A stretch of 64,000 bases of DNA from a bacterium (GTDB taxonomy: Bacteria; Patescibacteriota; Microgenomatia; Levybacterales; UBA12049), in assembly GCA_021824155.1 (NCBI GenBank), contig JAKALN010000001.1, positions 15 to 64,014 of the forward strand. Reading direction: 5' to 3'. Shown here piece after piece: positions 34,805 to 56,124 of the stretch. Both the position numbers and the translations under genes were made by a program. Numbering within the stretch: position 1 is the first letter of the stretch; the number at the start of each line of letters is the position of its first letter. A model generated the notes under the pieces. That model made no database searches, was not told the DNA's origin, and saw only the letters and a program-made list of their open reading frames with translations.

Positions 34805-37800
34805 TTATACCTCAACGGCTTCGTTGGCTACAACCGGAATAAGCCTTCCGATAATAACGTTTTCCTTAAGGCCTACAAGCTTATCCTCTGCTCCCTCCAA
34901 AGCTGCTTCTGTTAATACTTTTGTTGTCTCCTGGAACGAAGATGCCGAAAGCCATGAATCCGAGAACAGCGAAGACTTTGTAATACCAAGGATTATCTGC
35001 CTTGCGGTTGCAGGCTCTCCTCCCTGGGACAATACTTCGGCGTTTATTTCCTCAAACCTCGTCCTGGTTATGAAATCTCCGGGAATAAGGGCTGTGTCTC
35101 CGACAGTTTCTACTATTACTTTGTCGGACATTTTTCGCAAAATTACTTCAAAATGTTTATCGTTTATACCGATTCCCTGGGATTCATAAACTTTTTGGGC
35201 TTCGTTTATTATGTATCTTTGCGCACCGAGCAAATCTTTTACTTTTAATATTTCCTTAGGATCAAGATATCCTTGGGCAAGCTGGGCTCCAACTCCTATT
35301 TCGTCTCCTTCGGAAACCATCAAAGTCGAAGCAAGGGGAACAAAATATTCTCTTTCTTCGTTTGGTTTTACCCTTGAGTTTTTAACCCTTATTACATATC
35401 CGTCTTCTGTTGTTTCTATGCTTACTTTTCCTGCTACATCGGAAATAGGAGAAAGGTTTTTGGGAGTTCTCATTTCGAAAAGTTCCTCAACCCTTGGCAA
35501 ACCTTGCGTAACGTCGCTCATTACAACCCCTCCGAAATGTCTGACCCTCATTGTAAGCTGTGTTCCCGGCTCTCCGATTGACTGGGCTGCAACTACTCCT
35601 ACGGGTACTCCAAGTTCTACATTTTTCCTGTTGGAAAAATCCCAGCCGTAGCATCTTACGCAAATTCCGTATTCAAGCTTACAGGTAATCGGGCTTCTTA
35701 CAACAACTTCCTCAATTTCGCTGTCTAGAATTGCTTTTACTTTTGCTTCGGTAATTTCTTCTCCCGCTTTTACAATTTCTTTTTTATTTTTCTTGGAAAC
35801 TATATGCGTTGCCGCAAATCTTCCCAAAAGCCTGTCTCCGAATGCGGCCGTTCTGTCGAGTTCGTTTGCGGATATTAATATTCCGTCCTTTGTACCGCAG
35901 TCATCCGACCTTATTATTACGTCGTGGGAAACATCAACAAGCCTTCTTGTTAAATAACCGGCATTTGCGGTTTTCAAAGCAGAGTCGGTAAGTCCTTTTC
36001 TCGAACCTCTTGCACTTGCAACGTACTCAAAGATTGAAAGTCCCTGTCTGAAGTTTGATTTAATAGGAAGTTCAACAATCTTTCCCAAAGGATCAAGAAT
36101 AAGTCCTCTCATGGCGGAAAGCTGTTTTAACTGTTCTTTTCCTGCTCTTGCTCCCTCGGAATCGATAATAACCCTAATCATGTTTTCTTTGTTAAGGTTA
36201 TTCCATGTAAGATTTGCGAGCTCATCTGTTGTTTTTAGCCATATTTCGTTTGAGAGCCTTTTTCTTTCGTCAATTGTAATAAGACCTTCCTGATAATCTT
36301 TTTCTACTCCCGAAACTTTACCTTCGGCTTCATTTATTAATTTTCCTTTTTGGGGCACCATTGTGTTGTCAAAAACCGAAACCGAAATTCCCGAAATTGT
36401 GGAACCGAAGAAACCTAAGGATTTTATATTATCTATTAAATCCGCTACCTCATCGGACGTGCAGAGAGAAATTGCTTTTGTAACAAGCTTTTTTATTCCC
36501 GATGCCTTAACGGGTTCGTTTATAAAGCCCAGAGCTTCGGGAAGCCTTTCGTTAAACATAAGCCTTCCAAGCGTTGTTTCAACAAGTTTTCCTTCAACCC
36601 TTACATTTATCGGTTCCCTTAAAGTTATTCTCCCGAAGGAATTAGACAAAAGCGCTTCGTGATAATCGGCAAAAGTCGGCAATTCTTCTTTTCTGGAAGT
36701 CTCATCAAGAGACGTTATATAAAATACTCCGACTGCCATTTCTTTGTTGGGAAGAGTAATCGGGCTTCCGTCTGCCGGCTTTAAAAGATTATTTCTTGGC
36801 ATCATAAGCTGTATTGCCTCTTCCTGGGCTTTTTGCGAAAGAGGAATATGTACTGCCATCTGGTCTCCGTCAAAGTCCGCGTTATATCCGGCGCAGACAC
36901 AAGGATGCAAAGAAATTGCAGAACCTTCGGTTAATACCGGATAAAAAGCCTGAATACCAAGTTTGTGCAAAGTGGGTGCGCGGTTTAGCAAAACAGGATG
37001 GTTTTTTGTGATTTCTTCCAAAATATCGAATACTTCAGGAGGCCTTTTTTCTATAAATCTTTTTGCAGACTTTATATTTGGGGCAAAACCTCTTAAAATT
37101 ACTTCCCGCAAAACAAAAGGTTTAAACATTTCCAATGCCATTTCCTTGGGAAGTCCGCACTGGGAAATGTTAAGCTGGGGCCCTACAACAATTACGCTTC
37201 GGCCGCTATAATCAACCCTTTTTCCTAAAAGGTTTTGCCTGAATCTTCCCTGTTTTCCTCTTAACATATCGGACAACGACCTTAAAGGCGATGCTACAAA
37301 CTGACCGCTTCGTTGCGATGCGTCAATTAAAGAATCAACGGATTCCTGGAGCATTCTTTTTTCGTTTCGCAAAATTATTTCGGGAGCCCCCAAGGAAATT
37401 AAATGCCTCAAACGGTTATTTCTATTAATTACTCTTCTGTACAAATCGTTTAAGTCAGATGTAGCAAATCTTCCTCCCGCAAGCTGTACCATAGGCCTTA
37501 AATCCGGAGGGATAACGGGCAAAACCGTAAATACCATGTTGGCCGGGGATACTCCCGCTTCTCTCATGGCCTCTATTAGCCTTAATCTTTTAATAACCTT
37601 TAAGTATTTCTGTCCCTTTGACTTTTCCGCTTCCGCTCTTAAAGATATAATAAGACCCGCCAAATCGATTTTATTTACAAGCTCCATTAGTCCTTCCGCG
37701 CCTGTTTTTATTGTGAAGAAAACGGGAATATCGTATTCCAGAATTTTGTAGTATTCGTCTTCGGATAAAACGCTTCCGACTTTAAGGCTTTTCAAAAGCC

Positions 37801-38521
37801 TTGAAAGCGCGTCGGAAATTTCTTCGAGTTTTTTGTTTTCCGCTTCAAATCTTTCTTTAAGCCTTGCCAGCCTTTGCCTTTTCTGGAGCTCCAGCTCTTC
37901 TGCTATTAAGGTTTTTTGTTCGCCTTTAACCTTAACGTCTTTTGAATCTTTTTTCTTTTCCGCCATTTCTTTCTCGACCTTTTTTTCTTCTTCGTCCATT
38001 TCCCTTTTCTGCTCGGCTTTTCTATCGTCTATTGTTTTGTTAAGGGTGGAAAGGGCCTCTTTTTTCTTGTCTTCGTCTATTCCGACAACCAAATATGAAG
38101 CGTAGTAAATAACAGATTCCAAATTTTTCTGGGACATATCCAGAATTAAAGACAAAGGAGAAGACGAACCTTTAAAAAACCAAACGTGCGCAACGGGAGC
38201 CGCAATTGTAATATGGCCCATTCTTTCTCTTCTAACCCTTGAAAGTGTTACTTCGACTCCGCATTTATCACAGATAATCCCCCTGTTTCTGATTCTTTTG
38301 TATTTTCCGCAGTAACATTCCCAGTCTTTTGTGGGTCCGAAAATTCTTTCGTCAAAAAGTCCGTCTTTTTCAGGCCTTAATGTCCTATAATTGATTGTCT
38401 CCGGTTTTGTAACCTCTCCGTACGACCAGGAAAGAATATCTTCTTTGCTTGCCAATAATATTTTTAAGGCTTTAAAATCCAAAACTGTAATATCTTTCAT
38501 TTTTTTATTATCGTTATTCAT
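34805..38521 (-). CDS. rpoC: DNA-directed RNA polymerase subunit beta'
   Basis: NADFDGDQM catalytic motif and zinc-binding CxxC; 1238 aa. Confidence 0.95.
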
Positions 38522-41500
38522 TTTTTTCTCCTTCTTCCGCTATTTCTTCGGCATCTTCTACGGCTTTTTCATCGGAGGGAGTTTCTTCTCCGCTTAAACT
38601 TAACCCTTCTTCCCCTCCGGATACTCCTTCGGTTTGGCCTCCAAGCTCTTCCTGGAGTTCTTTTGCTTCTCCTTCTGCTTTTTCCTCGGCTTTTTCCTCG
38701 GCGGGTGTTTCATTCACCGGAATATCAAGCGGTTTATCCGAAATTGTAGCCCCCATAGGAACAACGTTAAGCCCCAGTGCCTGAAGTTCTTTTATCAAAA
38801 CTTTAAACGATTCCGGAACTTTGGGTGTTGGAATATCTGTCCCCTTAACAATGGCTTCAAAAGCTTTTGCTCTTCCGACAACGTCGTCCGATTTAATTGT
38901 AAGCATTTCCTGCAAAGTGTACCTTGCCCTGTGTGATTCTAAGGCCCAGACCTCCATCTCCCCCAACCTTTGTCCTCCCATTTGCGCTTTTCCTCCCAAA
39001 GGCTGCTGAGTAACCAAAGAATATGGACCTGTCGAACGCGCATGGGTTTTGTCTTCGACCATGTGGATAAGCTTCATTACGTATTCTATCCCTACAACCG
39101 CGGGATTTTCATAGGGTTCTCCTGTTCTTCCGTCGTAAAGAATTGCTTTTCCGTTTACGGGAAGACCTGCTCTTTTAAGCTCGTCAACAATCCTGTTTTC
39201 TTCAACTTCCTCAAAAACCGGCACTCCGACTTTTGAGCTTAAGCTCGATTGCGCCCAGCCCAAATGCGCTTCCAAGAGCTGTCCCAAATTCATACGGGCG
39301 AGTACCGAAATAGGCGAAATTATAATGTCAACCGCTGTTCCGTCTGCCAAATGGGGCATATCGACTTCGGGCAAAATTCTTGATATGACTCCTTTATTTC
39401 CGTGTCTTCCGGCAAGCTTGTCTCCGATTACAACGTGCCTAAACTGCGCTACTTCAACGAGTATTTTTCTTATTGTTCCGGGCTCCAATTCGTCGCCTTT
39501 TTTCCTGTCTAATATCTGAACACTTATAACTGTTCCTCTTTCTCCATGGGGCATTCTTAAAGATGTATCCCTTACTTCTCTTGCCTGTTCTCCGAATATT
39601 GCTCTTAAAAGTCTTTCTTCCGCTGTTAATTCGGTTTCGCCTTTTGGAGCTATTTTTCCGACAATTATGTCTCCGGGCCCTACCAAACTTCCGACAACGA
39701 CTATTCCGTCTTCGTCCAAATTAGCCAAATCTTCCTCGGAAACGTTTGGAATATCCCTGGTTGTTTCTTCGGGCCCTAATTTTGTCTCTACAACCGCTGC
39801 TTCGTATTTTTCAATGTGGATGGAAGACAAAATATCTTCTTTAACAAGCCTTTCCGAAATTACAATTCCGTCTTCGTATCCTAATCCGTCAAAAGATGTG
39901 TAAGCAATTGTAAGGTTTTGTCCCAAAGCCAGTTCTCCGTTGTCGGAAGCGGGTCCGTCAACAAGCAAATCTCCTTTTTTGACTTTTGCGCCTGTCTTAA
40001 CTACCGTTGTCTGCGTATAAGAAGTTGCCTGGGATGTCCTTTTAAATGAATCTACGTAATATGTTGCTTCTTCCTTTGGGCTTTTTCCTTTGATTGTAAC
40101 TTTGTTTGCATCGGCAAAAGTGATTGTCCCGTCATAGGGTGCAGTTATAACTCTTCCCATAACCGCGGAAATTGCTTTTTCCATGCCTGTTCCTACAACA
40201 GGACTTGCGGGTTTTACCAAGGGAACAGCCTGACACTGCATATGGGTACCCATTAAAGCCCTGTTTGCTTCATCATGGCTTATAAAAGGAATTAAAGATG
40301 CGGCAGAACCTACAACCTGCCTTGGGGCAACGTCAACATATTCAACGTTTTCCCTTTCGGTTTCTATAAATTCGCCCTTGTATCTTGCGGCGACTCTGTC
40401 TTCTTCTATTGTATCTTTATCCGTTAATGCTCCCGAATGGGTTATATAATGCTCTCTTTCGTCGTCTGCGGCCATAAAAACCATTTCGTTTGTCGCTTTG
40501 GAAACAATGTTATTGCCGTGTTTTTCGTGGACAACTTTCCTGTACGGGCTTTCCAAAAATCCGAATTCGTTAACTTTTGAATATAAAGCCATATATGTAA
40601 CCAAACCGATATTCGGTCCCTCGGGGCTTCTGATGGGACAAATTCTTCCGTACTGGGAAGAATTGATATCGCGGATAGAAAAAGCCGCTCTTTCTCTTGA
40701 AATTCCGCCCGTTCCCATAACTGTTAAACGGTTTAAGTTGTCTATTTCGGATAACGGGTTTGTCTGGTCTAAAATTGTGGAAAGCTGGGAGGTCCTGAAG
40801 AATTCGTTAATTGCTGCCATAATAGGCCTTGCGTTAATAAGTCCTGCAATGGAAACCGGAACGTCCGGCTGGATTAATGTCATTCTTTCTTTTATGCTTC
40901 GCTCTAACCTTAATACTCCGATTCTAAATGCCGTTGCGGCAACCAATTCTCCTACGCACCTAACACGTCTGTTTGCCAGCGAATCTATATCGTCAACTCC
41001 GTCTTTCCCCTGAGCCAAACCTATTAAAAAGCTCATTGCCCCGATAATATCGTTAACGGTTAATATCTTTGTATCTTTATCCGCCGGTTCAAATCCGGGT
41101 GTTCCCGCAAGTTTTTTATTTATCTTATATCTTCCCACTTCTCCCAAATCGTATCTTCTGTTGTTAAAAAACATTCCGTTAAAGTTTTCCCTTACTTTTT
41201 CCAAAACAACCGGTTCTCCGGGATGCATTTTTTTGAATATTTCTATTAAAGCGTCTGTCGAGTCTCCGGTTTCGTCTTTTTGAAGTGTGTTTTCTATAAA
41301 TGAGGTTTTTCCGTCCGCTTCCAAGTCTTTGAATTTTTCTTTTATGTCTTCGTTTGAAGAAATTCCCAGAGCTCTTAAAAAGGTTGATGCCAAAAACTTT
41401 CTTCTTCTGTCTATTTTTACCATTATTGTTTCGTGCCTTGTTGTTGTAAATTCAAGCCAGCTTCCGTGGACGGGCCTGATTTCGGAGGTAAATAAGTTTT

Positions 41501-41981
41501 TACCCGTAACGTTGTCCTGAAGAGCCGTAAAGAAAACTCCCGGGCTTCTTACCAGCTGGTTTACAACTGCTCTTTCTATTCCGTTTACAATAAAGGTCCC
41601 TCTTTCCGTCATCTGGGGAATATCTCCCAAGAATACTTCCTGGTCTATTGTTGAATTTGTTTTTTTATTTATTAAAGTTGCGTTTACGTAAAGGGGGGCG
41701 TCGTAGGTTAAACCTTTGGAAAGAGCAATGTCGGGGGTATTGCTTATCTTTCCAAGCCTGTAATCTTTAAGGACAAGACTCCAGTTTTTTTCCGTAAAAT
41801 CATCGATAGGGGAAATTTCCTGAAGGACCTGGGAAATACCTTTTTCCAAAAACCACTGATATGACTGTTTTTGAATAGCAAGTAAATCAAGTTGCGGTAA
41901 AAGAGAATGGGTTTTACCCCAGTTCTTTCTTGTTACGGTAATGTTATCCTTATTGTCTTTCTTGTCGGTATTTTTAGGCAT
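38514..41981 (-). CDS. rpoB: DNA-directed RNA polymerase subunit beta, acidic C-terminal tail
   Basis: Conserved beta blocks; 1155 aa; 8-nt overlap with rpoC. Confidence 0.95.
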
Positions 41982-44614: not shown

Positions 44615-45043
44615 ATGGCAAGGGATATTTATTATTTAAACCTCGAAGACATAAAAGAGCTTTGTTTTAATCTTGTAACTGAATTATTACAATTCCAGGA
44701 ACCAATTCCCGAATTTGAAACAAGATTCCCTGCCAAACTTGAATCTGTTCTGGAAACTCCAAGACAAACTTTTGGAGAGGATGAACTCTATCCAACTTTA
44801 TTTGATAAAGCTGCTTGTTATTTTTATTTTATTATCAAAAATCATCCTTTCCTAAATGGTAATAAAAGAATGGCAATTGTAACGACTTATGTTTTCTTAA
44901 AGGTGAACGGCTACATATTTTCAGCCCCATGGAAAATTATGTATTCTTTTGCAATTGAAATGGCAAATTCTTCAGAAGACCATAAAAAAGAATTTAAAAA
45001 AGTATTAACATTCATAAAGAAATACTCTAAAAAGAGTAAATAA
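44615..45043 (+). CDS. doc: Doc (death-on-curing) family toxin, Fic/Doc fold
   Basis: Signature HPFLNGNKR (Doc-type HxFx(D/N)GNKR). Confidence 0.7.
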   Translation: MARDIYYLNLEDIKELCFNLVTELLQFQEPIPEFETRFPAKLESVLETPRQTFGEDELYPTLFDKAACYFYFIIKNHPFLNGNKRMAIVTTYVFLKVNGYIFSAPWKIMYSFAIEMANSSEDHKKEFKKVLTFIKKYSKKSK

Positions 45044-45985: not shown

Positions 45986-48514
45986 TTAAGAATTTTCTAC
46001 AATTTTTATTTCTTCTGGAGTTAAATCGTAAAGCTTGTAAACTTCTCCATCAATTTTTTTATCAGTTTTATCTATTTCTTCTTTTATTGAATTCCATTTA
46101 TTTGATCCTTCGGGAAAACTGAATAGTTCCTTATTCAACTTCAACATTTTACTGACAGGGTCCTCAAAAATCTTAATTTTTTGTTTTTCGTTAGGATAAA
46201 TTATTGGAATTTCCCTTAACTGTTCTATTCTAATTTTTGGGAAAATTTTAGTGTCTGGGGAAATGTAGGTTTTAAAATAAAATCTATAAAGCTTAGAGTT
46301 TAAAATTGCTAATACAAATAATAAAGAAGAATTATTTGTTGTTTTAAGATTATACAAACTTCTTGTGGTTATAACTCCTTCCTCCTCATAAGAAGCAATT
46401 ATTGAATCTCCTGTTTCTCTTACAATTATTTTTGGAGGAGAAAAAATATTATTTGTTTTTTGATATTTATCAAAGGTTTCGCTGTTGATATAACCAGAGG
46501 ATTTTATAACATATCTACCTATATCTCTTCCTGAAAAGCACTTAATTTTTCCTTCACTTTTTATTTTATCTTGTCCGATCTCAAGACCCCTTCGAATAAT
46601 ACTTAAAGCCCCCAATTTTACCATTTGATGCCTACGAAAAATATCTATTTTACTTTCAAAAAAATCTTTATTAGATTCATTTTGTTGTTTAGTTAAATTT
46701 AAAATACAAGTTGGCATATTTACGTTAGCAAAAACTCTATCGCCCATTTCTTTTAAAGTCACTTCTTTTGAATTTTCATTAATATATTTTCTTAGAGGTT
46801 GATACTCTAAACCTTTTAAGAATAAACTAGGAATAATGAACCCTAAATTCCCAAATGTTTTTAAATTATTAATAGACATTTCGATAAAAATCGAAAACAG
46901 ATCAAAATAACCTGAAGCTAAAATATATTTGTTTTTGAAAAAATTTACGTCCTCTTTCTTTAAAGAATACATATTTACGTAAGGCGGATTTCCTATTACC
47001 ACATCGAAGCCTCCTTGTTGAAAAATTTTTGGAAATTGTTCTTTAAAGTTAAAAGGTTTTTTCTTTCTGAAGTCTTTACCGAAATATTTTTCTAATTCTT
47101 TATCTGTTCCTGAAATTAAAGAATTCCCGTTTTTTATATTACTATTCAATGAAGGCAATTCTCCTTTTTCTCTCAATGTGTTTATCAATAGATTTAGTTT
47201 TGCAATTTCAACAGCTTGTTCATCTAAATCAACTCCAAAAATATTATCTAAGAGAATTTGTTTTCTTAAATTTTCATCGTCCTCATAATTAAATTCTATG
47301 TATTTTTCAACAATTACCTCCAAGGCTTTTACTAAAAAAGAACCTGAGCCGCATGCTGGATCTAATACTTTAATTTTTTTTAAATCATTAACGCTAACGC
47401 ATTTATCTAAAACTGGTTTTAGGGCATTTCTTACAATGTAATCAACTATAAAAGCAGGCGTATAATAAATACCTTGTTCTTTCCTTTTTCCCGCAGCTTT
47501 ATCTAAGCTTAAACCTTTTTGCGATTGAGATAATTTATATCCTAAATAATTCTCATATACACTACCTAGAATATCAGCCGGAATGACTTTAAAGTCATAT
47601 TCATTATAGCCCTCAGTTCCATATAAAATTTTTATGACCTTCTTTGTAGAATCTCCATAGTCTACCCAATTTTCAAAAGGATGTGGGGAAAAAAGATTAG
47701 AGTTATATACTTTATCAAGCTCTCTAAATTTTGAAATCATAAAAGCATAAAGGGGCTTTTTTCTATCACTATTTTCCCAAGATCTTAAAAGTGGAATTAG
47801 CGTTGAAGGTTCAATACCTCTATCCTCCGCAACTCTAATAAAAATTAATCTATCTAAAAGTCTTTGAACTCCTTCATCTAATAATTCCTTATCTATTCCC
47901 TCATTCATGACATTTAAATCATTTGTTAATATTTCTCTGCATTTATTAAAATCTTTGTACAATGAATCCGTAATCGGAGATTTTATAATTTTTTTGCCAA
48001 CTCTTTCTGCTTCTTTATCTAGAAGGTTATTTAAAAAAGAATCCTTCGACAAAAGCCAGAGTTGTTCGAATCTCTCTAAATATTCATCATAATTAATACT
48101 AAAAAATAATTTATCTCCTAAGTACTTTGACGCTGCTTTTGCATTAAAAACCTTCAGTCCCTCAAAATCAGTTAAAATTGCCCATGTAACATCTCTATTC
48201 CAAGAGTATCTAATTGCTTGCCTTGCATATTCTTCCTGATTTAAATCGGCTTTTAATGGCTTTGCTTCAATATAAAGCTTAGCTCTCCCATTTATATAAA
48301 GCCCAAAATCAACTCGACCTGATGATAAAATACTTTCTTCAGCTGAAACCTCCTCCTTATTTGAGAAATCCCAACCCAATACTTCAAATAGTGGTTTTAT
48401 AAAAGCATTTTTTGTTTCTTCTTCTGTGTAGCTCTTGATTTTCCCAGAGGTTTTCACTTGCTCGTATTTAGCAATTAATTTCTTAACTTCTTCTTTAGCT
48501 TGTTCCTTATTCAT
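45986..48514 (-). CDS. Type IIG restriction-modification enzyme (MmeI-like: N-terminal PD-ExK nuclease, gamma-class N6-adenine MTase, C-terminal TRD)
   Basis: D-x13-EAK near the N-terminus. MTase motif I VLDPACGSGSFL and motif IV VIGNPPYV. 842 aa. Confidence 0.75.
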   Translation of the reverse strand: MNKEQAKEEVKKLIAKYEQVKTSGKIKSYTEEETKNAFIKPLFEVLGWDFSNKEEVSAEESILSSGRVDFGLYINGRAKLYIEAKPLKADLNQEEYARQAIRYSWNRDVTWAILTDFEGLKVFNAKAASKYLGDKLFFSINYDEYLERFEQLWLLSKDSFLNNLLDKEAERVGKKIIKSPITDSLYKDFNKCREILTNDLNVMNEGIDKELLDEGVQRLLDRLIFIRVAEDRGIEPSTLIPLLRSWENSDRKKPLYAFMISKFRELDKVYNSNLFSPHPFENWVDYGDSTKKVIKILYGTEGYNEYDFKVIPADILGSVYENYLGYKLSQSQKGLSLDKAAGKRKEQGIYYTPAFIVDYIVRNALKPVLDKCVSVNDLKKIKVLDPACGSGSFLVKALEVIVEKYIEFNYEDDENLRKQILLDNIFGVDLDEQAVEIAKLNLLINTLREKGELPSLNSNIKNGNSLISGTDKELEKYFGKDFRKKKPFNFKEQFPKIFQQGGFDVVIGNPPYVNMYSLKKEDVNFFKNKYILASGYFDLFSIFIEMSINNLKTFGNLGFIIPSLFLKGLEYQPLRKYINENSKEVTLKEMGDRVFANVNMPTCILNLTKQQNESNKDFFESKIDIFRRHQMVKLGALSIIRRGLEIGQDKIKSEGKIKCFSGRDIGRYVIKSSGYINSETFDKYQKTNNIFSPPKIIVRETGDSIIASYEEEGVITTRSLYNLKTTNNSSLLFVLAILNSKLYRFYFKTYISPDTKIFPKIRIEQLREIPIIYPNEKQKIKIFEDPVSKMLKLNKELFSFPEGSNKWNSIKEEIDKTDKKIDGEVYKLYDLTPEEIKIVENS

Positions 48515-48620: not shown

Positions 48621-48896
48621 TTATACCTTTACTCCTTTTTCCAATTCTTTTATTTTTCGTTCCATTTTTTTCATCCGTTTTTCCGCAATTTGCATTTCTT
48701 TATAAAGAAAAATAATAAAAGCACCAGACAAAGTTAAGAAAAATATTTGAAAAGAAAAATTACCTCTAACAAAAAGGTCGTAAATTATATTTCCGGTAAT
48801 ACCGAATAATAAACCAAAAAACAAGGCAAGAATAAATAAGCCCGTGTTTCTTTCCTTTTCTCTTATTTCTTTAAGTTCAGATTTTAAGGCTTTCAT
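48621..48896 (-). CDS. Small membrane protein (1-2 TM plus C-terminal coiled coil), last gene of the Ubl-E2-JAB-E1 operon
   Basis: Hydrophobic core then Lys/Glu-rich helix. 1-nt gap from the E1 gene. Confidence 0.4.
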   Translation of the reverse strand: MKALKSELKEIREKERNTGLFILALFFGLLFGITGNIIYDLFVRGNFSFQIFFLTLSGAFIIFLYKEMQIAEKRMKKMERKIKELEKGVKV

Positions 48897-48897
48897 A

Positions 48898-49758
48898 TTA
48901 TCTTAGGATTTTATCAATTCCATTTTTGGGGTAACGTTCAATATCTGCTTTATCTCCATTTCCTAATACAGTTTTGCAATAGTAACAATCCTGAATTGGA
49001 TCTATATTTTTGGTTAAAATACTTAAATCTCCTCTATAGGTGAGGTATTTATTTACTTTTCTAATACTAGTAACTGCTGATATGAATTCTGAAACAGCTA
49101 TTGAAGCTATAGTACCATTTAATGAAACTACAGCTGGACCCGTATTTTTTATTACTTCTTTTGGAATTCCATATATGTTATCCTCTGCTGAGCGGTCCGC
49201 AGGGGTTGATAAATCTCTTCTAATTTCCTCTGAAGATAACAAGCCTCTACAGAATAAGCAACCAGGCTCAGAGTTTGAAAAAACTACTCTTCCGCCCCAA
49301 TCATCCTTTGAGATTTGAGAGGCTAGATCAAAATAATTTATTTTATAAGCTTTTGAAAATTCAGTTAAAACTAATCTAGCTCCGTCCTTATCTACGCATC
49401 CAAAAATGTAATTTACACGTTTTAATGCTTTTATACTAATTTCCGAAATAAAGCTGTCTCCAACACTATAGACAGACATATCTTCTGATATAAATTTTAG
49501 GTTTCTTTCTGCAATATTAACCTTTAAGTTATTTATGTCTTTTTCATTAGCACCTATCAACCTATTTAGATTTGTTTTGCTTACTATATCAGCATCAATT
49601 AAAACAAAATCCTTAACCCCCAAATACGCTAATTGTTGAGCAACATGAGATCCAATTCCGCCTAAGCCAACAATAGCTACTCTTGTTTTTTCAATTTCCA
49701 TCTGACCTTTTATGCCAACCCATAATATATTTCTGTTATATTTATTGTTCTCATCCAT
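48898..49758 (-). CDS. E1-like ubiquitin-activating enzyme (ThiF/MoeB fold)
   Basis: VAIVGLGGIGSHVAQQL Rossmann/ATP motif; paired CxxC (CLFCRG ... CYYCK). Confidence 0.75.
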   Translation of the reverse strand: MDENNKYNRNILWVGIKGQMEIEKTRVAIVGLGGIGSHVAQQLAYLGVKDFVLIDADIVSKTNLNRLIGANEKDINNLKVNIAERNLKFISEDMSVYSVGDSFISEISIKALKRVNYIFGCVDKDGARLVLTEFSKAYKINYFDLASQISKDDWGGRVVFSNSEPGCLFCRGLLSSEEIRRDLSTPADRSAEDNIYGIPKEVIKNTGPAVVSLNGTIASIAVSEFISAVTSIRKVNKYLTYRGDLSILTKNIDPIQDCYYCKTVLGNGDKADIERYPKNGIDKILR

Positions 49759-50257
49759 ATTTTTTTTGAAAGGAAATATTTGTAGGTTTTAAAAATTTTT
49801 TGTTTACGATGATTGAATTTAACCTAACCGAAGTATTGCCATCTTTCAACCACACTTTGGCGTCAAAATCGCTTCGTCCAAAAACAAGTGCAATATAAGG
49901 TTTTTTTTCTAATCTCCAGAAAATATAAGGTACAAATTCTGCCAGCTCAGACAAATCAAATTCAGAGAACGTAGTATTGGAAAAAGAAAACGGATGTGAA
50001 TGAATTTCACAAAGGGAAAAATTTTTCAAAAAAGCTTTTTTTATTATTTTGGAAATTATTTCATCCTTTGTTTCTAAATAATACCTATCCTCATTGTCAT
50101 CAATATATATAAAATCTCCGACCTCAAAAATTAAAGACGTAGTGTTTTCTGAGTAAGTCAAGAACAAAAAAATATTTTGTTCAAATCTACTCTCATCCAA
50201 AAATTTTTTGATTTTTAAGAAGTCTTTTTTTTTAAATTTGAGAAATATACTTTTCAT
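49751..50257 (-). CDS. JAB/MPN (JAMM-like) metallopeptidase
   Basis: EIHSHPFSFSNTTFSEFD gives HxH...SxxD. Confidence 0.6.
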   Translation of the reverse strand: MKSIFLKFKKKDFLKIKKFLDESRFEQNIFLFLTYSENTTSLIFEVGDFIYIDDNEDRYYLETKDEIISKIIKKAFLKNFSLCEIHSHPFSFSNTTFSEFDLSELAEFVPYIFWRLEKKPYIALVFGRSDFDAKVWLKDGNTSVRLNSIIVNKKFLKPTNISFQKKYG

Positions 50258-50646
50258 GATTCCTCCTTAAATCTTTCTTTAAAACTTCTAACGAAGTTTA
50301 GTAGATTGCTTCCTGAATTTATATCTGAAGTTGGTTTCCAAGAGTTATCTTGAACCCAGGAAAATTTCCCCCATTCGTTTCCAAAAGGTGTAGATACCGG
50401 CTCGGTATAACTTCCTGGGATGGACTGTTCATTTGCTTTTATTCTTATTCCCCTTGGAACATAAAAAGCATAAGGAGGCTCTCCGGGATATCCAATCGGA
50501 ATTTGGAAACATATATTCACAATATCCCTATTCCAAGCATTACTAGAAATTTTAAAATTGTTAATAAAAATCCAGCCATCTTTATACTCGAGATCGCCAA
50601 ATTCTTTTTTTAGAATTTCTAATTCTTTTTTAATTCTTTCATTCAT
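50254..50646 (-). CDS. Putative E2-like (UBC-fold) protein
   Basis: Assigned from operon context (between the Ubl and JAB genes) and YPGEPPYAFYVP; no clear HPN motif. Confidence 0.4.
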   Translation of the reverse strand: MNERIKKELEILKKEFGDLEYKDGWIFINNFKISSNAWNRDIVNICFQIPIGYPGEPPYAFYVPRGIRIKANEQSIPGSYTEPVSTPFGNEWGKFSWVQDNSWKPTSDINSGSNLLNFVRSFKERFKEES

Positions 50647-50882
50647 CCTCTTTTATATTGAACTTTTTTTCCATACCTATGACCGGGTTTAAGAGTAACA
50701 ATGTCATCTTCCGCAAGAGTTTTCTCATTTCCCTGAGGATCTATTTCAATTACTGGTTGTTCGGAGGGTAATCCTCCCAAACTTCTTATTTCTGGGACAG
50801 TAATAGTTTCCTTATCCCAAGGATACTCAGTTCCCTCAATTTCAATAAAATATTTTGGCCCGTTTCCCATTTTTCTTTTCAC
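50643..50882 (-). CDS. Putative ubiquitin-like (beta-grasp) protein, 79 aa, ends in Gly
   Basis: First gene of the operon; AGGAGGTG RBS 8 nt upstream; C-terminal ...YKRG. Confidence 0.35.
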   Translation of the reverse strand: MKRKMGNGPKYFIEIEGTEYPWDKETITVPEIRSLGGLPSEQPVIEIDPQGNEKTLAEDDIVTLKPGHRYGKKVQYKRG

Positions 50883-50979
50883 CTCCTTTTTACTACTTGA
50901 ATTTTTGTAAAAAGTGTTGTATTATTTTTACAACAATAGAATTAAAAAGTCAAGCAATAAGATCTGATATAATCATGCT

Positions 50980-51333
50980 ATGAAAACTTTTGGCAAACTA
51001 CTCAGAGAAAAAAGAATTGCACTTGGCTTCACTCTCCGTACATTTTGTGGAAGATTTGGGTACGACCCAGCTTATATTAGTAGGCTGGAAAGAAATTTAA
51101 TGCCTGCTCCTGAAAGCAAGGAAAAAATTGAGGCATTGGCTAATGCTCTATCCATAGAAAAAAATAGCCCAGATTGGGTTGAATTTTTTGACCTAGCTTA
51201 CTTGTCGAAAGGAAAAATCCCTGAAGATATTGGCAAAAATGATCATCTCCCACTCTTATTTCGAACTATCAGAGGAAAGAGGCTTTCTAAACAACAACTT
51301 GAAAAGCTAGTAAAGCTTCTAAATGAATCATGA
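50980..51333 (+). CDS. XRE-family HTH transcriptional regulator
   Basis: HTH (LRTFCGRFGYDPAYISRLERN); divergent from the Ubl operon. Confidence 0.7.
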   Translation: MKTFGKLLREKRIALGFTLRTFCGRFGYDPAYISRLERNLMPAPESKEKIEALANALSIEKNSPDWVEFFDLAYLSKGKIPEDIGKNDHLPLLFRTIRGKRLSKQQLEKLVKLLNES

Positions 51334-51923
51334 GCTTTACTACAAAACCTATCTCTTATAGAAAGATAGGAGAATTAGCAGAGGATTTTCTATCAAAATA
51401 TCATCCTTCTTTTTCTCTCTCTGTACCCATCGAAGAAATTGCAGAATCTAAACTTGATATTCAAATTGTTCCCGTTGTTGGAATAAAAAAGGATTATGAC
51501 ATGGATGCATCTCTCTGCTCTAATTTCAATACAATTTTCATTGACTATAACTTTTATATGAATCGTGAAAATAGAAGTAGATTTACAATTGCTCATGAGA
51601 TTGGCCATCTTATCTTACATAAAGATTTGTTCGAGTCTCTTAAAATCTTTAATATAGAGGATTTATTTAAAATTTCAGAGTCAATAAGTGATAACGAGTA
51701 TAGATGGATGGAATATCAAGCTTATTCTTTTGCAGGCCATGTATTAGTTCCAAAAAAACTACTAATTGACGAAATAAAGAAAAAGTTGGGTAGAGTACCA
51801 AGCGAAGAAAATCCTGAGTCTCTTTATCCTGTAATTCAAGATCTTTCTGACATCTTTAAGGTCTCTGAGGATGTCATACTTAGACGACTTCAAAAAGAAA
51901 AAATGGTAAAGAGCAATCATTAA
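51330..51923 (+). CDS. ImmA/IrrE family metallopeptidase
   Basis: HEIGHLILH (HExxH), with a 4-nt overlap with the HTH gene. Confidence 0.75.
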   Translation: MSFTTKPISYRKIGELAEDFLSKYHPSFSLSVPIEEIAESKLDIQIVPVVGIKKDYDMDASLCSNFNTIFIDYNFYMNRENRSRFTIAHEIGHLILHKDLFESLKIFNIEDLFKISESISDNEYRWMEYQAYSFAGHVLVPKKLLIDEIKKKLGRVPSEENPESLYPVIQDLSDIFKVSEDVILRRLQKEKMVKSNH

Positions 51924-51924
51924 C

Positions 51925-52548
51925 CTAATGATTGAGTTCTATTCCCGAAGCATCATTGATGGAAAGAGTTTCACTGCAACTGTTGAAACTTCCCGTAACC
52001 AAAACCGAAGTATTATTAAAAGGAACGAGGTTTATGTTTTCGTTAAATGGAATATTTAAAGTCGTTCCGTCGGTCTTTACCAAAATTGTCCTGTTGATAA
52101 TTTTCGATGAACTATGAACCATAAGAATTGTGTCGATGAGCGAAAGCGGACCATTATATATTTCCCTGTAATTTAAAACTTTTATTGTTCCTATGTGGGT
52201 TTGCACACCTTTATCGCAGATTACCCGGTTTCCTCCAAAAAGTCCGAAAACCGAAAGGACTAAAATAACCCCTGCAATTCCCAAACTGCCTTTAAGTGTA
52301 AAAGAAAAAGCTTTTTGGTTTTTTATTTCCTCCAAAAGCTCTATTACACGTCTTAGCGGATTTCCGATTCTAATATCAAGGAGGTCTTCCTGATCTTTGT
52401 AATTGCCGGTGTGGCTGGCAAGGAAAGTAGACAGTGGATCGTGGAGGTTAGAAAGACCGGGAACTTTAATAAAGTGACCTTTCTCGTCGCGGGGACGAGA
52501 AGATGCAACTTCTCCTTTGAGTTTATCTTTGGCTTGAGCACTAGCCAT
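51925..52548 (-). CDS. Hypothetical single-TM protein (207 aa)
   Basis: ORF with one hydrophobic helix (GIAGVILVLSVFGLFG). Confidence 0.4.
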   Translation of the reverse strand: MASAQAKDKLKGEVASSRPRDEKGHFIKVPGLSNLHDPLSTFLASHTGNYKDQEDLLDIRIGNPLRRVIELLEEIKNQKAFSFTLKGSLGIAGVILVLSVFGLFGGNRVICDKGVQTHIGTIKVLNYREIYNGPLSLIDTILMVHSSSKIINRTILVKTDGTTLNIPFNENINLVPFNNTSVLVTGSFNSCSETLSINDASGIELNH

Positions 52549-52641: not shown

Positions 52642-53004
52642 GTGATTAAAACCTTTCGTGATTTAGAGGTTTACAACGAATCCTACTCCTTAATGATTCT
52701 TGCTCACAAATTAGCAAAAACTCTTCCCGTCTATGAACGTAATGATTTGGCTTCTCAAATAAGAAGAGCTTCAAAATCTTGTCCTGCTAATATTGCAGAG
52801 GGTTGGGCTAAAAGGAGATTTGAAAAAGAATTTAAACACCATTTGGATAGCGCAATCGGTTCAGCAAACGAAATGGAAGTACATATAGAAACCGCAAGAG
52901 ACTTGGGATATTTACAAGAAAATTTTTCAAACGATATTCTGGTTCGATACCAAAAACTAGGCGGGAAATTAAGAAATCTGCAAAGAAACTGGAAAACATA
53001 CTAA
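52642..53004 (+). CDS. Four-helix-bundle protein (23S rRNA intervening-sequence protein family), GTG start
   Basis: 120 aa with the typical family length and helical pattern. Confidence 0.65.
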   Translation: MIKTFRDLEVYNESYSLMILAHKLAKTLPVYERNDLASQIRRASKSCPANIAEGWAKRRFEKEFKHHLDSAIGSANEMEVHIETARDLGYLQENFSNDILVRYQKLGGKLRNLQRNWKTY

Positions 53005-53091: not shown

Positions 53092-53412
53092 ATGGCAGAA
53101 GGACTGGAAGCCCATATTACACCGGATGAGGCTTTTTGGAAAAAACCTCCAATACCTGAAAAAGAAAAGCCTTTAAATTTAAAAGAAAAGGCTTTTTATC
53201 TTGCATTGGACTCCTTTCCCGAAGCAACCCAAAACCTTATAGCCTCTTTATCCACAAGTTTTTTAGAAGCAGACGTTTATAACGAATTTAAAAACAGCAA
53301 AGGAAGCATCAGTTCTTTAAGAAAGAGGTTAAAAGGCCAAGGTTTAATGCAGGAGCAAGTAGAGCTTGTTCTTGATTTTTTCAAGCTGCCTTACGAAAGT
53401 CCAAAAAGATGA
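53092..53412 (+). CDS. Hypothetical protein (106 aa), partner of Fic
   Basis: 4-nt overlap with the downstream Fic gene. Confidence 0.45.
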   Translation: MAEGLEAHITPDEAFWKKPPIPEKEKPLNLKEKAFYLALDSFPEATQNLIASLSTSFLEADVYNEFKNSKGSISSLRKRLKGQGLMQEQVELVLDFFKLPYESPKR

Positions 53413-54134
53413 GTCCAGATAAGCCATCCCACCAGCTGCAAGAATTAGGAAACGAATTTAAATGCCAGAAATTGGTTAATCAATGGCTTGGCGACCATAT
53501 CCCAAGCAGCCAAATTATTCCCCATCTGCATAAACAGCTTATGGACGGAAGTGACGACTACGCAAAAAAAGGGATATTACCAGTACCGCCCGGAGTTTAC
53601 AGGAATATAGACGTTGCAACCGACGGGGAACCTGCAAATTACTACGCATTTGGCCTTGACGTTGCCCCCGCTATGGGAAAATATACCAAAGACCTTGATA
53701 ATTTACTCCGAAACTTACCAAGAAACCCTATTGGAAATATTGATTCTATAGTAGAAAACGCCGCAAGATATTATTACGCTTTTGAAAGAATACATCCTTT
53801 CCTGGACGGAAACGGAAGAATTGGAAGAATGATTTTAAAAAGGATATTAAGGGGCGCCGGCCTAAAAGATTTGGTTTTTAGGTCCGATTTGGGCAAAGGA
53901 AGAAACGCTCATCTGGACGCAATAAAAGCGGTAAACAGATCGGGAAACATTGCATACATAGAAATTTATCTGTTAGACCAGATCGGCTTAAGGTATATGG
54001 GAGAAAGGGACGAAAATTTTTCCCTCGAAATCCAAAGAGCCCGCCGGAAAAAAACCGATAACATACAAAACCAGAAATACCCTTATCCCGTAACTGATAT
54101 TTGGGAAGGGTTTAAAGGTTTAGACATCGCATAA
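53409..54134 (+). CDS. fic: Fic family protein (AMPylase-type)
   Basis: Canonical HPFLDGNGRIGR. Confidence 0.8.
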   Translation: MSPDKPSHQLQELGNEFKCQKLVNQWLGDHIPSSQIIPHLHKQLMDGSDDYAKKGILPVPPGVYRNIDVATDGEPANYYAFGLDVAPAMGKYTKDLDNLLRNLPRNPIGNIDSIVENAARYYYAFERIHPFLDGNGRIGRMILKRILRGAGLKDLVFRSDLGKGRNAHLDAIKAVNRSGNIAYIEIYLLDQIGLRYMGERDENFSLEIQRARRKKTDNIQNQKYPYPVTDIWEGFKGLDIA

Positions 54135-54351: not shown

Positions 54352-56124
54352 ATGAATATAAAAGAGATTATTGATGTTTATATAAGTTTTTTTGAAAAAC
54401 GCGGGCATAAGAGAATTGCAAATTCTCCGCTTGTCCCGGAAAACGACCCTACTACCCTTTTTACATCATCGGGTATGCAGCCTTTAATCCCATATCTTTT
54501 GGGAGAAAAACACCCCCAAGGAGACAGGCTTGTTGACGTACAAAATTGTTTTAGGGCAGTTGATATAGACGAAGTTGGTGATAATCGTCACACAACTTTT
54601 TTCAGGATGCTTGGAAATTGGAGTCTGGGAAGTTATTTTAAAAAAGAGGAAATCCCAATGCTTTGGGAATTTTTAACTAAAGAACTAAACCTTCCCAAAG
54701 AAAAACTTTATATAACAGTATTTGCCGGAGACGGAGGGGTTGGAAAAGATAACGAAGCTTTTGAAATTTGGAAAACGCTTGTTCCCGAAAATAAAATTTT
54801 CTTTGCGGGAGTTGATAAAAATTGGTGGTCTAGAAGCGGAGTGCCGGATAATATGCCCGTAGGCGAACCTGGCGGGCCCGATACCGAAGTTTATTACAGA
54901 TTTGACGATTTAAAACATAACTCTGAGTGCAAAGATAACCCCGTTGAATGCGAATGCGGAAAGTTTTTGGAAATCGCAAACTCTGTTTTTATGCAGTATC
55001 TAAAAACAGAAGAAGGATTTAAGGAATTACCCCAGAAAAACGTAGATTTTGGAGGAGGAGTCGAAAGACTTTTGGCAGCAGTTGAAGACAAACCGGATAT
55101 CTTCCAAACCTCCCTGCTCTATCCCGTTATAAAAACTATTGAAAAACAAACGGGAGCTTCTTATGGAATTAAGAATTATGAATTAAGAATTATGACCGAC
55201 CATTTGGTTGCGGGAGTTTTTATTTCAAGCGCAAACGTTAAGCCTTCAAACAAAGAAAGAGGATATATTTTAAGAAGGTTGCTTAGAAGAAGCTTTGATA
55301 ACTTATACAAACTTAAAACTGAAAACTTAGAACCTATAATTGAAACAATAGTCCAGCAATATAAAGATACGGATCCGTATTTGATAAATAATTTTGAGGA
55401 AATTAAATTTACAATTTTGGAGGAAGAAAAAAATTATAAAGGAACACTTTCGCGGGCAAAAACTTTTATCGACAAAAAATATCCCGGAAAAGAAGCGGAA
55501 GGCGTTAAAGAAATTTCCGCCGAAGATGCTTTCCTTTTGTATTCAACCCACGGACTTTCCCCAACCCAAATAAGAAGTTTGGGGTACGTTTTTAAGGAAG
55601 AAGATTTTGCGGTTTTAATGGAAGAGCACCAAAAATTATCAAGACTTGGTGCTTCACAAAAATTCAGGGGAGGGCTTGCGGATACAAATGAGCGGACAAT
55701 AATGGGACATACGGCAACCCACCTTTTACATAAAGCCTTAAGGGATATGTTTGGAGACCAACTTCACCAGACAGGAAGCAATATTACAACAGAGAGGCTA
55801 AGGTTTGATTTTAATTTTGACAGAAAATTAACCGGGGAAGAAATAGAAAAATTGGAAGATGTTGTTAACGGAAAAATAAAGGAAAACCTTCCGGTGCATT
55901 TTGAAATAATGCCGTTAAAAAGGGCAAAAGAACTGGGGGCAATAGGCCTTTTTGACGAAAAGTACGAAAATGACGTAAAAGTTTATTTTGTAGGCGATTA
56001 TTCAAAAGAGTTTTGCGGAGGCCCGCATGTAGATTTTACATCGAAGCTAAAAAGGTTTAAGATAATAAAACAGGAAAATATAGGTAACCGCCAAAGAAGA
56101 ATTTATGCGGTGGTCGGCGAATAA
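54352..56124 (+). CDS. alaS: Alanine--tRNA ligase, compact form (catalytic plus editing motifs, no C-Ala domain)
   Basis: FTSSGMQP, RHTTFFRMLGNWSLGSYFK, HTATHLLH and CGGPHV. Confidence 0.8.
   Translation: MNIKEIIDVYISFFEKRGHKRIANSPLVPENDPTTLFTSSGMQPLIPYLLGEKHPQGDRLVDVQNCFRAVDIDEVGDNRHTTFFRMLGNWSLGSYFKKEEIPMLWEFLTKELNLPKEKLYITVFAGDGGVGKDNEAFEIWKTLVPENKIFFAGVDKNWWSRSGVPDNMPVGEPGGPDTEVYYRFDDLKHNSECKDNPVECECGKFLEIANSVFMQYLKTEEGFKELPQKNVDFGGGVERLLAAVEDKPDIFQTSLLYPVIKTIEKQTGASYGIKNYELRIMTDHLVAGVFISSANVKPSNKERGYILRRLLRRSFDNLYKLKTENLEPIIETIVQQYKDTDPYLINNFEEIKFTILEEEKNYKGTLSRAKTFIDKKYPGKEAEGVKEISAEDAFLLYSTHGLSPTQIRSLGYVFKEEDFAVLMEEHQKLSRLGASQKFRGGLADTNERTIMGHTATHLLHKALRDMFGDQLHQTGSNITTERLRFDFNFDRKLTGEEIEKLEDVVNGKIKENLPVHFEIMPLKRAKELGAIGLFDEKYENDVKVYFVGDYSKEFCGGPHVDFTSKLKRFKIIKQENIGNRQRRIYAVVGE

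Follow-up and report, generated by a model that had tools for sequence, protein, structure and literature searches.

Bacterial operons formerly grouped as "6E" have recently been renamed Bub, for bacterial ubiquitination-like (Ye, Gong, Chambers and Corbett, bioRxiv 10.1101/2024.11.21.623953). In these systems the E1 enzyme has no cysteine in its crossover loop and carries an invariant tyrosine instead, and the E2 enzyme has an invariant serine; this catalytic serine is needed for conjugation in both Bub types and is assisted by a histidine at position +2 together with an aspartate in Type I, and by a lysine and a histidine in Type II (bioRxiv 10.1101/2024.11.21.623953). All Bub operons are reported to encode BubE, which is proposed to act as a deconjugase in canonical Bub (bioRxiv 10.1101/2024.11.21.623953). 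Type I Bub (formerly 6E.1) consists of BubAB, BubCD and BubE and is exemplified by Citrobacter sp. RHBSTW-00271 (PDB 9ea4, 9eae, 9eav), whereas Type II Bub (formerly 6E.2) consists of BubA, an E2-E1 fusion termed BubBD, and BubE, usually without a JAB peptidase and always with BubE. The locus described here occupies positions 48621-51923 of a 64,000-nt stretch of DNA (hereafter the window, whose numbering is used throughout) from contig JAKALN010000001.1 of assembly GCA_021824155.1, assigned to the patescibacterial lineage Levybacterales; UBA12049. It encodes a ubiquitin-like protein (Ubl), an E2-like protein, a JAB peptidase and an E1-like protein, and is read, with a probability of roughly 0.72, as a Bub-type conjugation operon that is fully split into four genes.

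The operon comprises five open reading frames (ORFs) on the minus strand, the junctions of which, in the ORF listing, are two successive 4-nt overlaps, an 8-nt overlap and a 1-nt gap; a pair of putative regulatory genes diverges from it. The initial annotation had described five packed minus-strand genes beside a divergent pair combining a helix-turn-helix (HTH) protein with an M78 peptidase, and the coordinates, junctions and named motifs were all borne out; its reading of the first four genes as a Ubl, E2, JAB and E1 conjugation operon is likewise supported for each domain by family and profile matches. The features are as follows.

50643..50870, minus strand: Ubl, BubA-like, 75 aa from the ATG (50643-50882, 79 aa, counting from the GTG at 50882); Multi_ubiq
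50254..50646, minus strand: E2-like protein of the ubiquitin-conjugating (UBC) fold, BubB-like, 130 aa; Prok-E2_E, putative catalytic Ser96
49751..50257, minus strand: JAB/JAMM zinc peptidase, BubC-like, 168 aa; JAMM motif and family profile
48898..49758, minus strand: E1-like adenylating enzyme, BubD-like, 286 aa, with one ThiF-fold domain; ThiF
48621..48896, minus strand: 91-aa protein with two hydrophobic segments; hydropathy
50871..50979, no strand assigned: divergent promoter region with candidate operator palindromes; sequence and repeat scan
50980..51333, plus strand: XRE-type HTH repressor, CapH-like, 117 aa; HTH_3, capH
51330..51923, plus strand: M78 (ImmA/IrrE-type) zinc metallopeptidase, CapP-like, 197 aa; Peptidase_M78, capP

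Multi_ubiq and Prok-E2_E together match the domain set of "6E" operons, and the similarity tests all pointed to Bub and none to Bil (bacterial ISG15-like) systems. The E1-like protein is recognized by Pfam ThiF (5.7e-33, above the Pfam cut-off) as a single adenylation domain, and the GxGxxG motif and two CxxC pairs first noticed in it are present as G31LGGIG, C167/C170 and C258/C261, the two CxxC zinc motifs being conserved among its homologs. Its best match in the PDB is Citrobacter BubCD, both as a single sequence (4e-15) and as a 27-sequence profile (2.2e-28), and the profile alignment pairs Tyr196 with the catalytic Y370 of BubCD. The crossover loop (residues 171-215) always holds (I/V)-Y-G-(V/I), with Tyr196 invariant, and contains none of the cysteines of the window protein (residues 121, 167, 170, 258 and 261); among the 34 E1 sequences long enough to cover this region, a single one has a cysteine there, and none is conserved.

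The Ubl is a single beta-grasp domain. What had been put forward as a possible beta-grasp fold was confirmed by Pfam Multi_ubiq (2.6e-6, above the Pfam cut-off), by a match of the family profile to the Citrobacter multi-ubiquitin protein in the PDB (9d59, 8e-9) and by an AlphaFold2 model with a predicted local distance difference test score (pLDDT) of 81.5. The protein and its terminal glycine, at the end of ...YKRG, stand as first described, but its length is probably 75 rather than 79 aa: the most likely start is the ATG at 50870, because the GTG at 50882 falls within the Shine-Dalgarno sequence AGGAGGTG and public gene calls give 75 aa. Counted on the longer form, R78 and G79 show no variation among 43 homologs, and the Ubl always carries ...K-R-G, either at the end of the ORF or followed by a tail. 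Such a short tail beyond the glycine (VSHE, TSDE, RV, Y and others) is found in approximately 40% of the homologs, and in one (L057) the Ubl is fused to the E2. Such an arrangement is classically seen in modifiers in which a peptidase uncovers the glycine.

The JAB protein is weakly matched as a single sequence (Pfam 0.14, PADLOC JAB 1.3e-3). Its family profile, in comparison, has one match in the PDB, the peptidase domain of BubCD (2.8e-6), with the E, HSH and S..D motifs aligned. The HxH...SxxD signature, which was recognized at the outset, is present as H86-S-H88 and S98-x-x-D101, and across 33-42 homologs E26, H86-x-H88, S98 and D101 are conserved, so that the JAMM motif is intact throughout. 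For the Ubl, the E2 and the JAB protein, no specific model was matched in NCBIfam or PADLOC.

The 130-aa protein matches Pfam Prok-E2_E (3e-8, above the Pfam cut-off), which upholds the UBC fold expected of it. The only cysteine, Cys46, lies in a beta-strand eight residues ahead of the YPGxPP motif, not at the active-site position, and is replaced by alanine in two homologs (P0012 and L046), for which reasons it is not regarded as the catalytic residue. An F-S-W motif containing Ser96 is, on the other hand, invariant in 48 sequences, and Ser96-Trp97 is likewise kept without exception by the Ubl-E2 fusion proteins (206-367 aa) that are common among the E2 relatives. Ser96 is accordingly put forward as the putative catalytic residue and probable equivalent of BubB S333, given its invariance and the variable length of the loop that follows it.

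Homologs were gathered from a search of 5.8 billion proteins, a metagenome scan (49 loci) and one GTDB genome. The order Ubl-E2-JAB-E1 was kept in all 47 other distinct metagenomic loci, 30 of which captured the four genes in full and the remainder of which were interrupted by contig ends; recurrence in every one of these loci argues that the order is not due to chance. The initial annotation had recommended a search for homologous five-gene cassettes, and it is the four-gene order that recurs, the fifth (91-aa) gene not being shared. Fusions do occur within the clade: the JAB and E1 are joined in L017 and L022, and the Ubl and E2 in L057, reproducing the architectures of BubCD and BubAB, respectively. 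In a profile search of 1.84 billion representatives, 496 E2 relatives were recovered, and the best 150 of these were mostly standalone proteins of 126-137 aa, accompanied by approximately 20 single-Ubl-E2 fusions and three proteins (342-367 aa) in which a longer N-terminal Ubl region is joined to the E2. Given these fusions among its relatives, the split form grades into Type I Bub. E2 relatives were not found in viral contigs, and among GTDB species genomes the one match was a metagenome-assembled genome of Saccharibacteria (L012); several relatives originate in 0.1-0.2 um groundwater filter fractions. The clade apparently is associated with the Candidate Phyla Radiation (CPR).

Set beside Type I Bub, the window operon has the same Ubl, E2, JAB and E1 domains in identical order, and a Citrobacter protein is the best or only PDB relative of each of its four proteins. 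The features that define Bub membership include a multi-ubiquitin-family Ubl ending in glycine, a Prok-E2_E protein with an invariant serine, and a single-domain E1 with a tyrosine and no cysteine in its loop, all of which were found here, together with a JAMM peptidase; moreover, regulators of the CapH and CapP type often adjoin, and some members of the clade are fused as BubAB or BubCD. The differences are nonetheless considerable. The window has four separate ORFs in place of gene fusions, and its Ubl consists of one beta-grasp domain, for which cleavage is unnecessary; the E2 lacks both the S-x-H and the Asp helpers; the serine protease BubE (DUF6527) was not detected in the window or in the screened flanks of its relatives; the E1 retains two CxxC motifs; and an unrelated 91-aa membrane protein follows the E1. 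The distance from Type II Bub is plainer still, as the E2 and E1 of the clade are separate, a JAB protein is always present and BubE was not found. Compared with the published description of Bub, the split, BubE-less form with a single beta-grasp Ubl and SOS-type regulators is a new variant.

Several observations weigh against assignment to Bub. DUF6527/BubE gave no match among the proteins of the window's operon and its neighbours, nor in any of 10 individually checked genes downstream of related loci; it is also not among the families matched by at least two of the 149 ORFs flanking related loci, a threshold under which a lone match is possible. As BubE was not found whereas all Bub operons are reported to encode it, the clade departs from the family in one defining feature and, by its separate genes, in the characteristic fusions as well. 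The E2 is without the helper residues known beside the catalytic serine of Type I or Type II Bub: position +2 from Ser96 varies (V, S, Q, H or A), D299 has as its counterpart Tyr59, replaced by Asp in a few homologs, and histidine is invariant nowhere in the family. Furthermore, HMMER pairs BubB W332 with W97, which places BubB S333 opposite the variable residue 98 and not opposite Ser96, and the equivalence of Ser96 and S333 rests on sequence and not on a residue-level structural superposition. Finally, phage protection has not been demonstrated even for canonical Bub operons.

An alternative is that the cassette is related to Bub but its E2 is non-catalytic, akin to a ubiquitin E2 variant (UEV), with the E1 alone adenylating or directly transferring the Ubl, or that the system works by controlled binding or assembly of the Ubl and not by covalent tagging. 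The protein has neither a catalytic cysteine nor the His/Asp or Lys/His helpers of characterised Bub E2s, E2_E proteins were once predicted to be inactive, and the proposed deconjugase, BubE, is not detected in the cassette. Such an explanation is nevertheless considered unlikely, as Ser96-Trp97 is invariant in standalone and fused relatives alike, the equivalent serine is essential for conjugation in both Bub types, and the intact JAMM peptidase and the strictly kept RG of the Ubl point to covalent processing or conjugation.

The initial annotation had favoured an antiviral system of the Bil type (BilA-BilB-BilC-BilD), in which a thioester-forming E1 and E2 would modify structural proteins of phage with the Ubl. 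Bil systems do likewise have a Ubl, an E2, a JAB and an E1 encoded in this order by four separate genes, and they too occur in defence-island settings; the Ubls of some Type II Bil systems are of the multi-ubiquitin type. The gene arrangement is, however, shared by Bil and the present clade and does not discriminate. The E1 is one 286-aa domain with a tyrosine and no cysteine in its loop, the E2 has an invariant serine but no catalytic cysteine at the canonical UBC position, and the matches are to Bub. The architecture of the E1, the position of the E2 cysteine and all similarity searches thus led to rejection of the Bil assignment, which is deemed very improbable. A caution attached to the Bil proposal, namely that the chemistry may differ, proved well placed; the tyrosine and serine are hallmarks of the oxyester type of Bub and not of the Bil thioester.

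Even less probable, to the point of being barely plausible, is a sulfur-carrier or cofactor module of the MoaD/ThiS plus MoeB/ThiF type, in which the small beta-grasp protein would carry a thiocarboxylate. With the E1 profile, MoeB comes close to BubCD in score (9e-27 vs 2e-28), the E1 has the pair of CxxC zinc motifs usual in MoeB and ThiF, and ThiS is a weak second match of the Ubl profile (0.19). Against this, the scores to the NCBIfam ThiF and MoeB models are far under their cut-offs (e.g., 75 vs 275 bits), and no rhodanese domain, MoaE, ThiG or ThiH neighbour was seen in the window or in related loci; a MoeB/ThiF sulfur-carrier system, raised in the initial annotation as the alternative, is accordingly rejected. 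The E2 and JAB proteins, moreover, are always present, the Ubl belongs to Multi_ubiq, and the regulators are repressors of the DNA-damage type. Cap2/Cap3 of Type II CBASS (anti-phage signalling by cyclic oligonucleotides), where Cap2 is an E2-E1 fusion accompanied by a CD-NTase and an effector, were also rejected, as the PADLOC E1-E2 matches span the adenylation core alone (residues ~20-100) and the locus has no CD-NTase gene.

If the Bub assignment is correct, the chemistry, regulation and function of the operon can be inferred by analogy with Citrobacter Bub. The E1, probably as a homodimer, would adenylate the C-terminal glycine of the 75-aa Ubl, which would next be loaded on crossover-loop Tyr196 as an oxyester and then passed on to the E2, forming another oxyester with its Ser96; the E2 would hand the Ubl to target lysines without an E3. 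Because the Ubl already ends in glycine and BubE was not found, the JAB protein would more likely serve in the window operon as a deconjugase, the role ascribed to BubE in canonical Bub, and in relatives with a tailed or E2-fused Ubl it would additionally expose the glycine. The divergent CapH-like HTH protein probably represses the operon, and DNA damage or phage infection, by activating the CapP-like M78 peptidase, would lift this repression. The operon may serve in phage defence or in a general stress response.

CapH and CapP form a system of a repressor and an M78 peptidase activated by single-stranded DNA (Lau et al. 2022, 10.1101/2022.04.27.489752), to which the pairs ImmR/ImmA and DdrO/IrrE are related. 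The resemblance of the divergent HTH/HExxH pair to CapH/CapP, suggested from the outset, held up: the HTH protein matches Pfam HTH_3 (2.5e-6, above cut-off) and PADLOC capH (2e-7), and the peptidase, the gene of which overlaps the HTH gene by 4 nt, matches Pfam Peptidase_M78 (2.1e-12, above cut-off) and PADLOC capP (1.4e-17) and carries H89EIGH. As with CapH and CapP, an XRE-family HTH gene and an HExxH M78 gene diverge from the neighbouring operon, and a palindrome lies over the promoter of that operon. The window peptidase differs in being short (197 aa) and nearer ImmA in size; its match to capP runs over residues 12-152, paired with positions 4-125 of a profile of 242 positions, and takes in only the catalytic half (the peptidase domain), and its C-terminal regulatory domain may be reduced. 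Regulation by this pair is a prediction from sequence.

With the ATG at 50870 as the start of the Ubl gene, the intergenic region between the operon and the HTH gene is 109 bp long; with the GTG it is 97 bp. It is AT-rich and holds overlapping palindromes at 50905-50935, namely TGTTGTA-N7-TACAACA (50915-50935) and TTGTAAAAA-N11-TTTTTACAA (50905-50933), which may be candidate operators of the HTH protein. Promoter-like hexamers are present on both strands, and the minus-strand site TTGACT starts at 50953, with its -10 element overlapped by the palindromes.

Nine HTH and M78 pairs were counted in the flanks of related loci, 32 of which offer over 1.2 kb of sequence upstream (~28%), a frequency that parallels the 31% of reported Bub operons that CapH and CapP accompany (bioRxiv 10.1101/2024.11.21.623953). 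The four closest relatives of the cassette have, in place of the HTH and M78 genes, a divergent LexA gene (Peptidase_S24 plus LexA_DNA_bind) directly upstream:

L012, 3154-3756: divergent LexA gene
L014, 4335-4937: divergent LexA gene
L026, 2007-2633: divergent LexA gene
L029, 2356-2982: divergent LexA gene

No clear common LexA box was seen in the LexA-linked intergenic regions of these relatives. On this sequence evidence, the family appears to swap among DNA-damage-responsive repressors.

The 91-aa gene begins 1 nt past the stop codon of the E1 gene, a spacing from which it is probably co-transcribed with E1. The protein had been described as having a transmembrane segment and a coiled coil; hydropathy instead shows two hydrophobic segments (~19-43 and 46-65) with charged tails on either side, and no family was matched in Pfam, PADLOC or NCBIfam scans. 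Its placement outside the conserved core, in contrast, agrees with the wider survey, in which none of the 27 other loci whose sequence continues past E1 has the gene and in which, among related loci, phmmer found the protein solely in contigs identical to the window. A role as a conserved fifth component was consequently rejected, because the genes following E1 vary between loci and homologs of the protein occur in unrelated operons. Two downstream arrangements deserve mention in their own right. In L008 (7764-12396), genes for unknown proteins of 350 and 613 aa and SbcD-like and SbcC-like genes come after the cassette in the same orientation, and in L048 (9839-10300) the gene of a YdjM-family membrane protein does so; such neighbours could represent linked modules. 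The YdjM family is reported to be LexA-regulated in E. coli.

Homologs of the 91-aa protein form three clusters with 67-85% identity, and are encoded in small-gene operons on five contigs that have no Ubl, E2, JAB or E1 gene (L062; L063; L064, 3542-3820; L065, 2426-2707; and L066, 1720-2001). Three of the five (L064-L066) have a divergent LexA gene just upstream of the homolog, and in L065 and L066 the operon of the homolog also follows HNH and DUF1508 genes; according to Gong et al., some Bub Ubls carry a fused DUF1508. Judged by this distribution, the 91-aa protein is an accessory, lineage-specific passenger that recurs beside repressors of the DNA-damage type. One possibility is that these lineages induce it, as a small membrane protein, in the SOS response; any role as an effector or target is speculation.

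The operon lies in an island between rpoB/rpoC (34805-41981) and an unusually short, 590-aa alanyl-tRNA synthetase (54352-56124). The GC content falls to 0.28-0.33 at 46-52 kb vs 0.36-0.41 around it, a drop that suggests horizontal acquisition. An island holding a restriction-modification enzyme and Fic/Doc genes had been noted previously, and a type IIG enzyme and two Fic/Doc genes are indeed present in the low-GC stretch. The further features of the island are listed below.

45986-48514, minus strand: type IIG restriction-methyltransferase fusion, 842 aa; Eco57I, N6_Mtase and TaqI_C; PADLOC REase_MTase_IIG 1.6e-109
44615-45043 and 53092-54134, plus strand: Fic/Doc-family genes, flanking the island
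52642-53004, plus strand: 23S_rRNA_IVP four-helix-bundle protein, 2.2e-26
51925-52548, minus strand: 207-aa protein matching no family; one hydrophobic segment

A 106-nt gap separates the type IIG gene from the 91-aa gene, which it directly follows in the same orientation. The second Fic/Doc gene (53409-54134) overlaps by 4 nt an upstream ORF of 106 aa, which may encode an antitoxin or partner, and public gene calls place a 41-aa ORF directly downstream of the first (L001, 9166-9291). The 23S_rRNA_IVP family is often found in mobile or variable regions. The 207-aa gene converges on the M78 gene, the two stop codons lying 1 nt apart, and both genes are kept together in the contigs identical to the window.

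Lastly, a bolder reading may be offered tentatively, as a possibility more than an expectation: the clade could represent a third Bub architecture, a minimal split cassette enriched in ultra-small groundwater (CPR) bacteria and placed under SOS-type control, in which BubE is dispensable, the JAMM peptidase is the sole processing and deconjugating enzyme, the catalytic serine acts free of the known helpers and, in this genome, the 91-aa protein has been recruited as a target or effector. Bub systems are the only ubiquitination-like systems reported to function without any catalytic cysteine. By keeping the tyrosine and serine hallmarks while dropping BubE and, in the window, all fusions, the clade hints at which parts may form the core of the pathway, and its set of four proteins (75, 130, 168 and 286 aa) is a very small system for reconstitution. 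The recurrent company of LexA or CapH/CapP-like regulators is a further, independent argument for the idea of a Bub-type response to phage infection or DNA damage. Should the CPR host be confirmed, ubiquitin-like conjugation would have been retained in bacteria with very reduced genomes.

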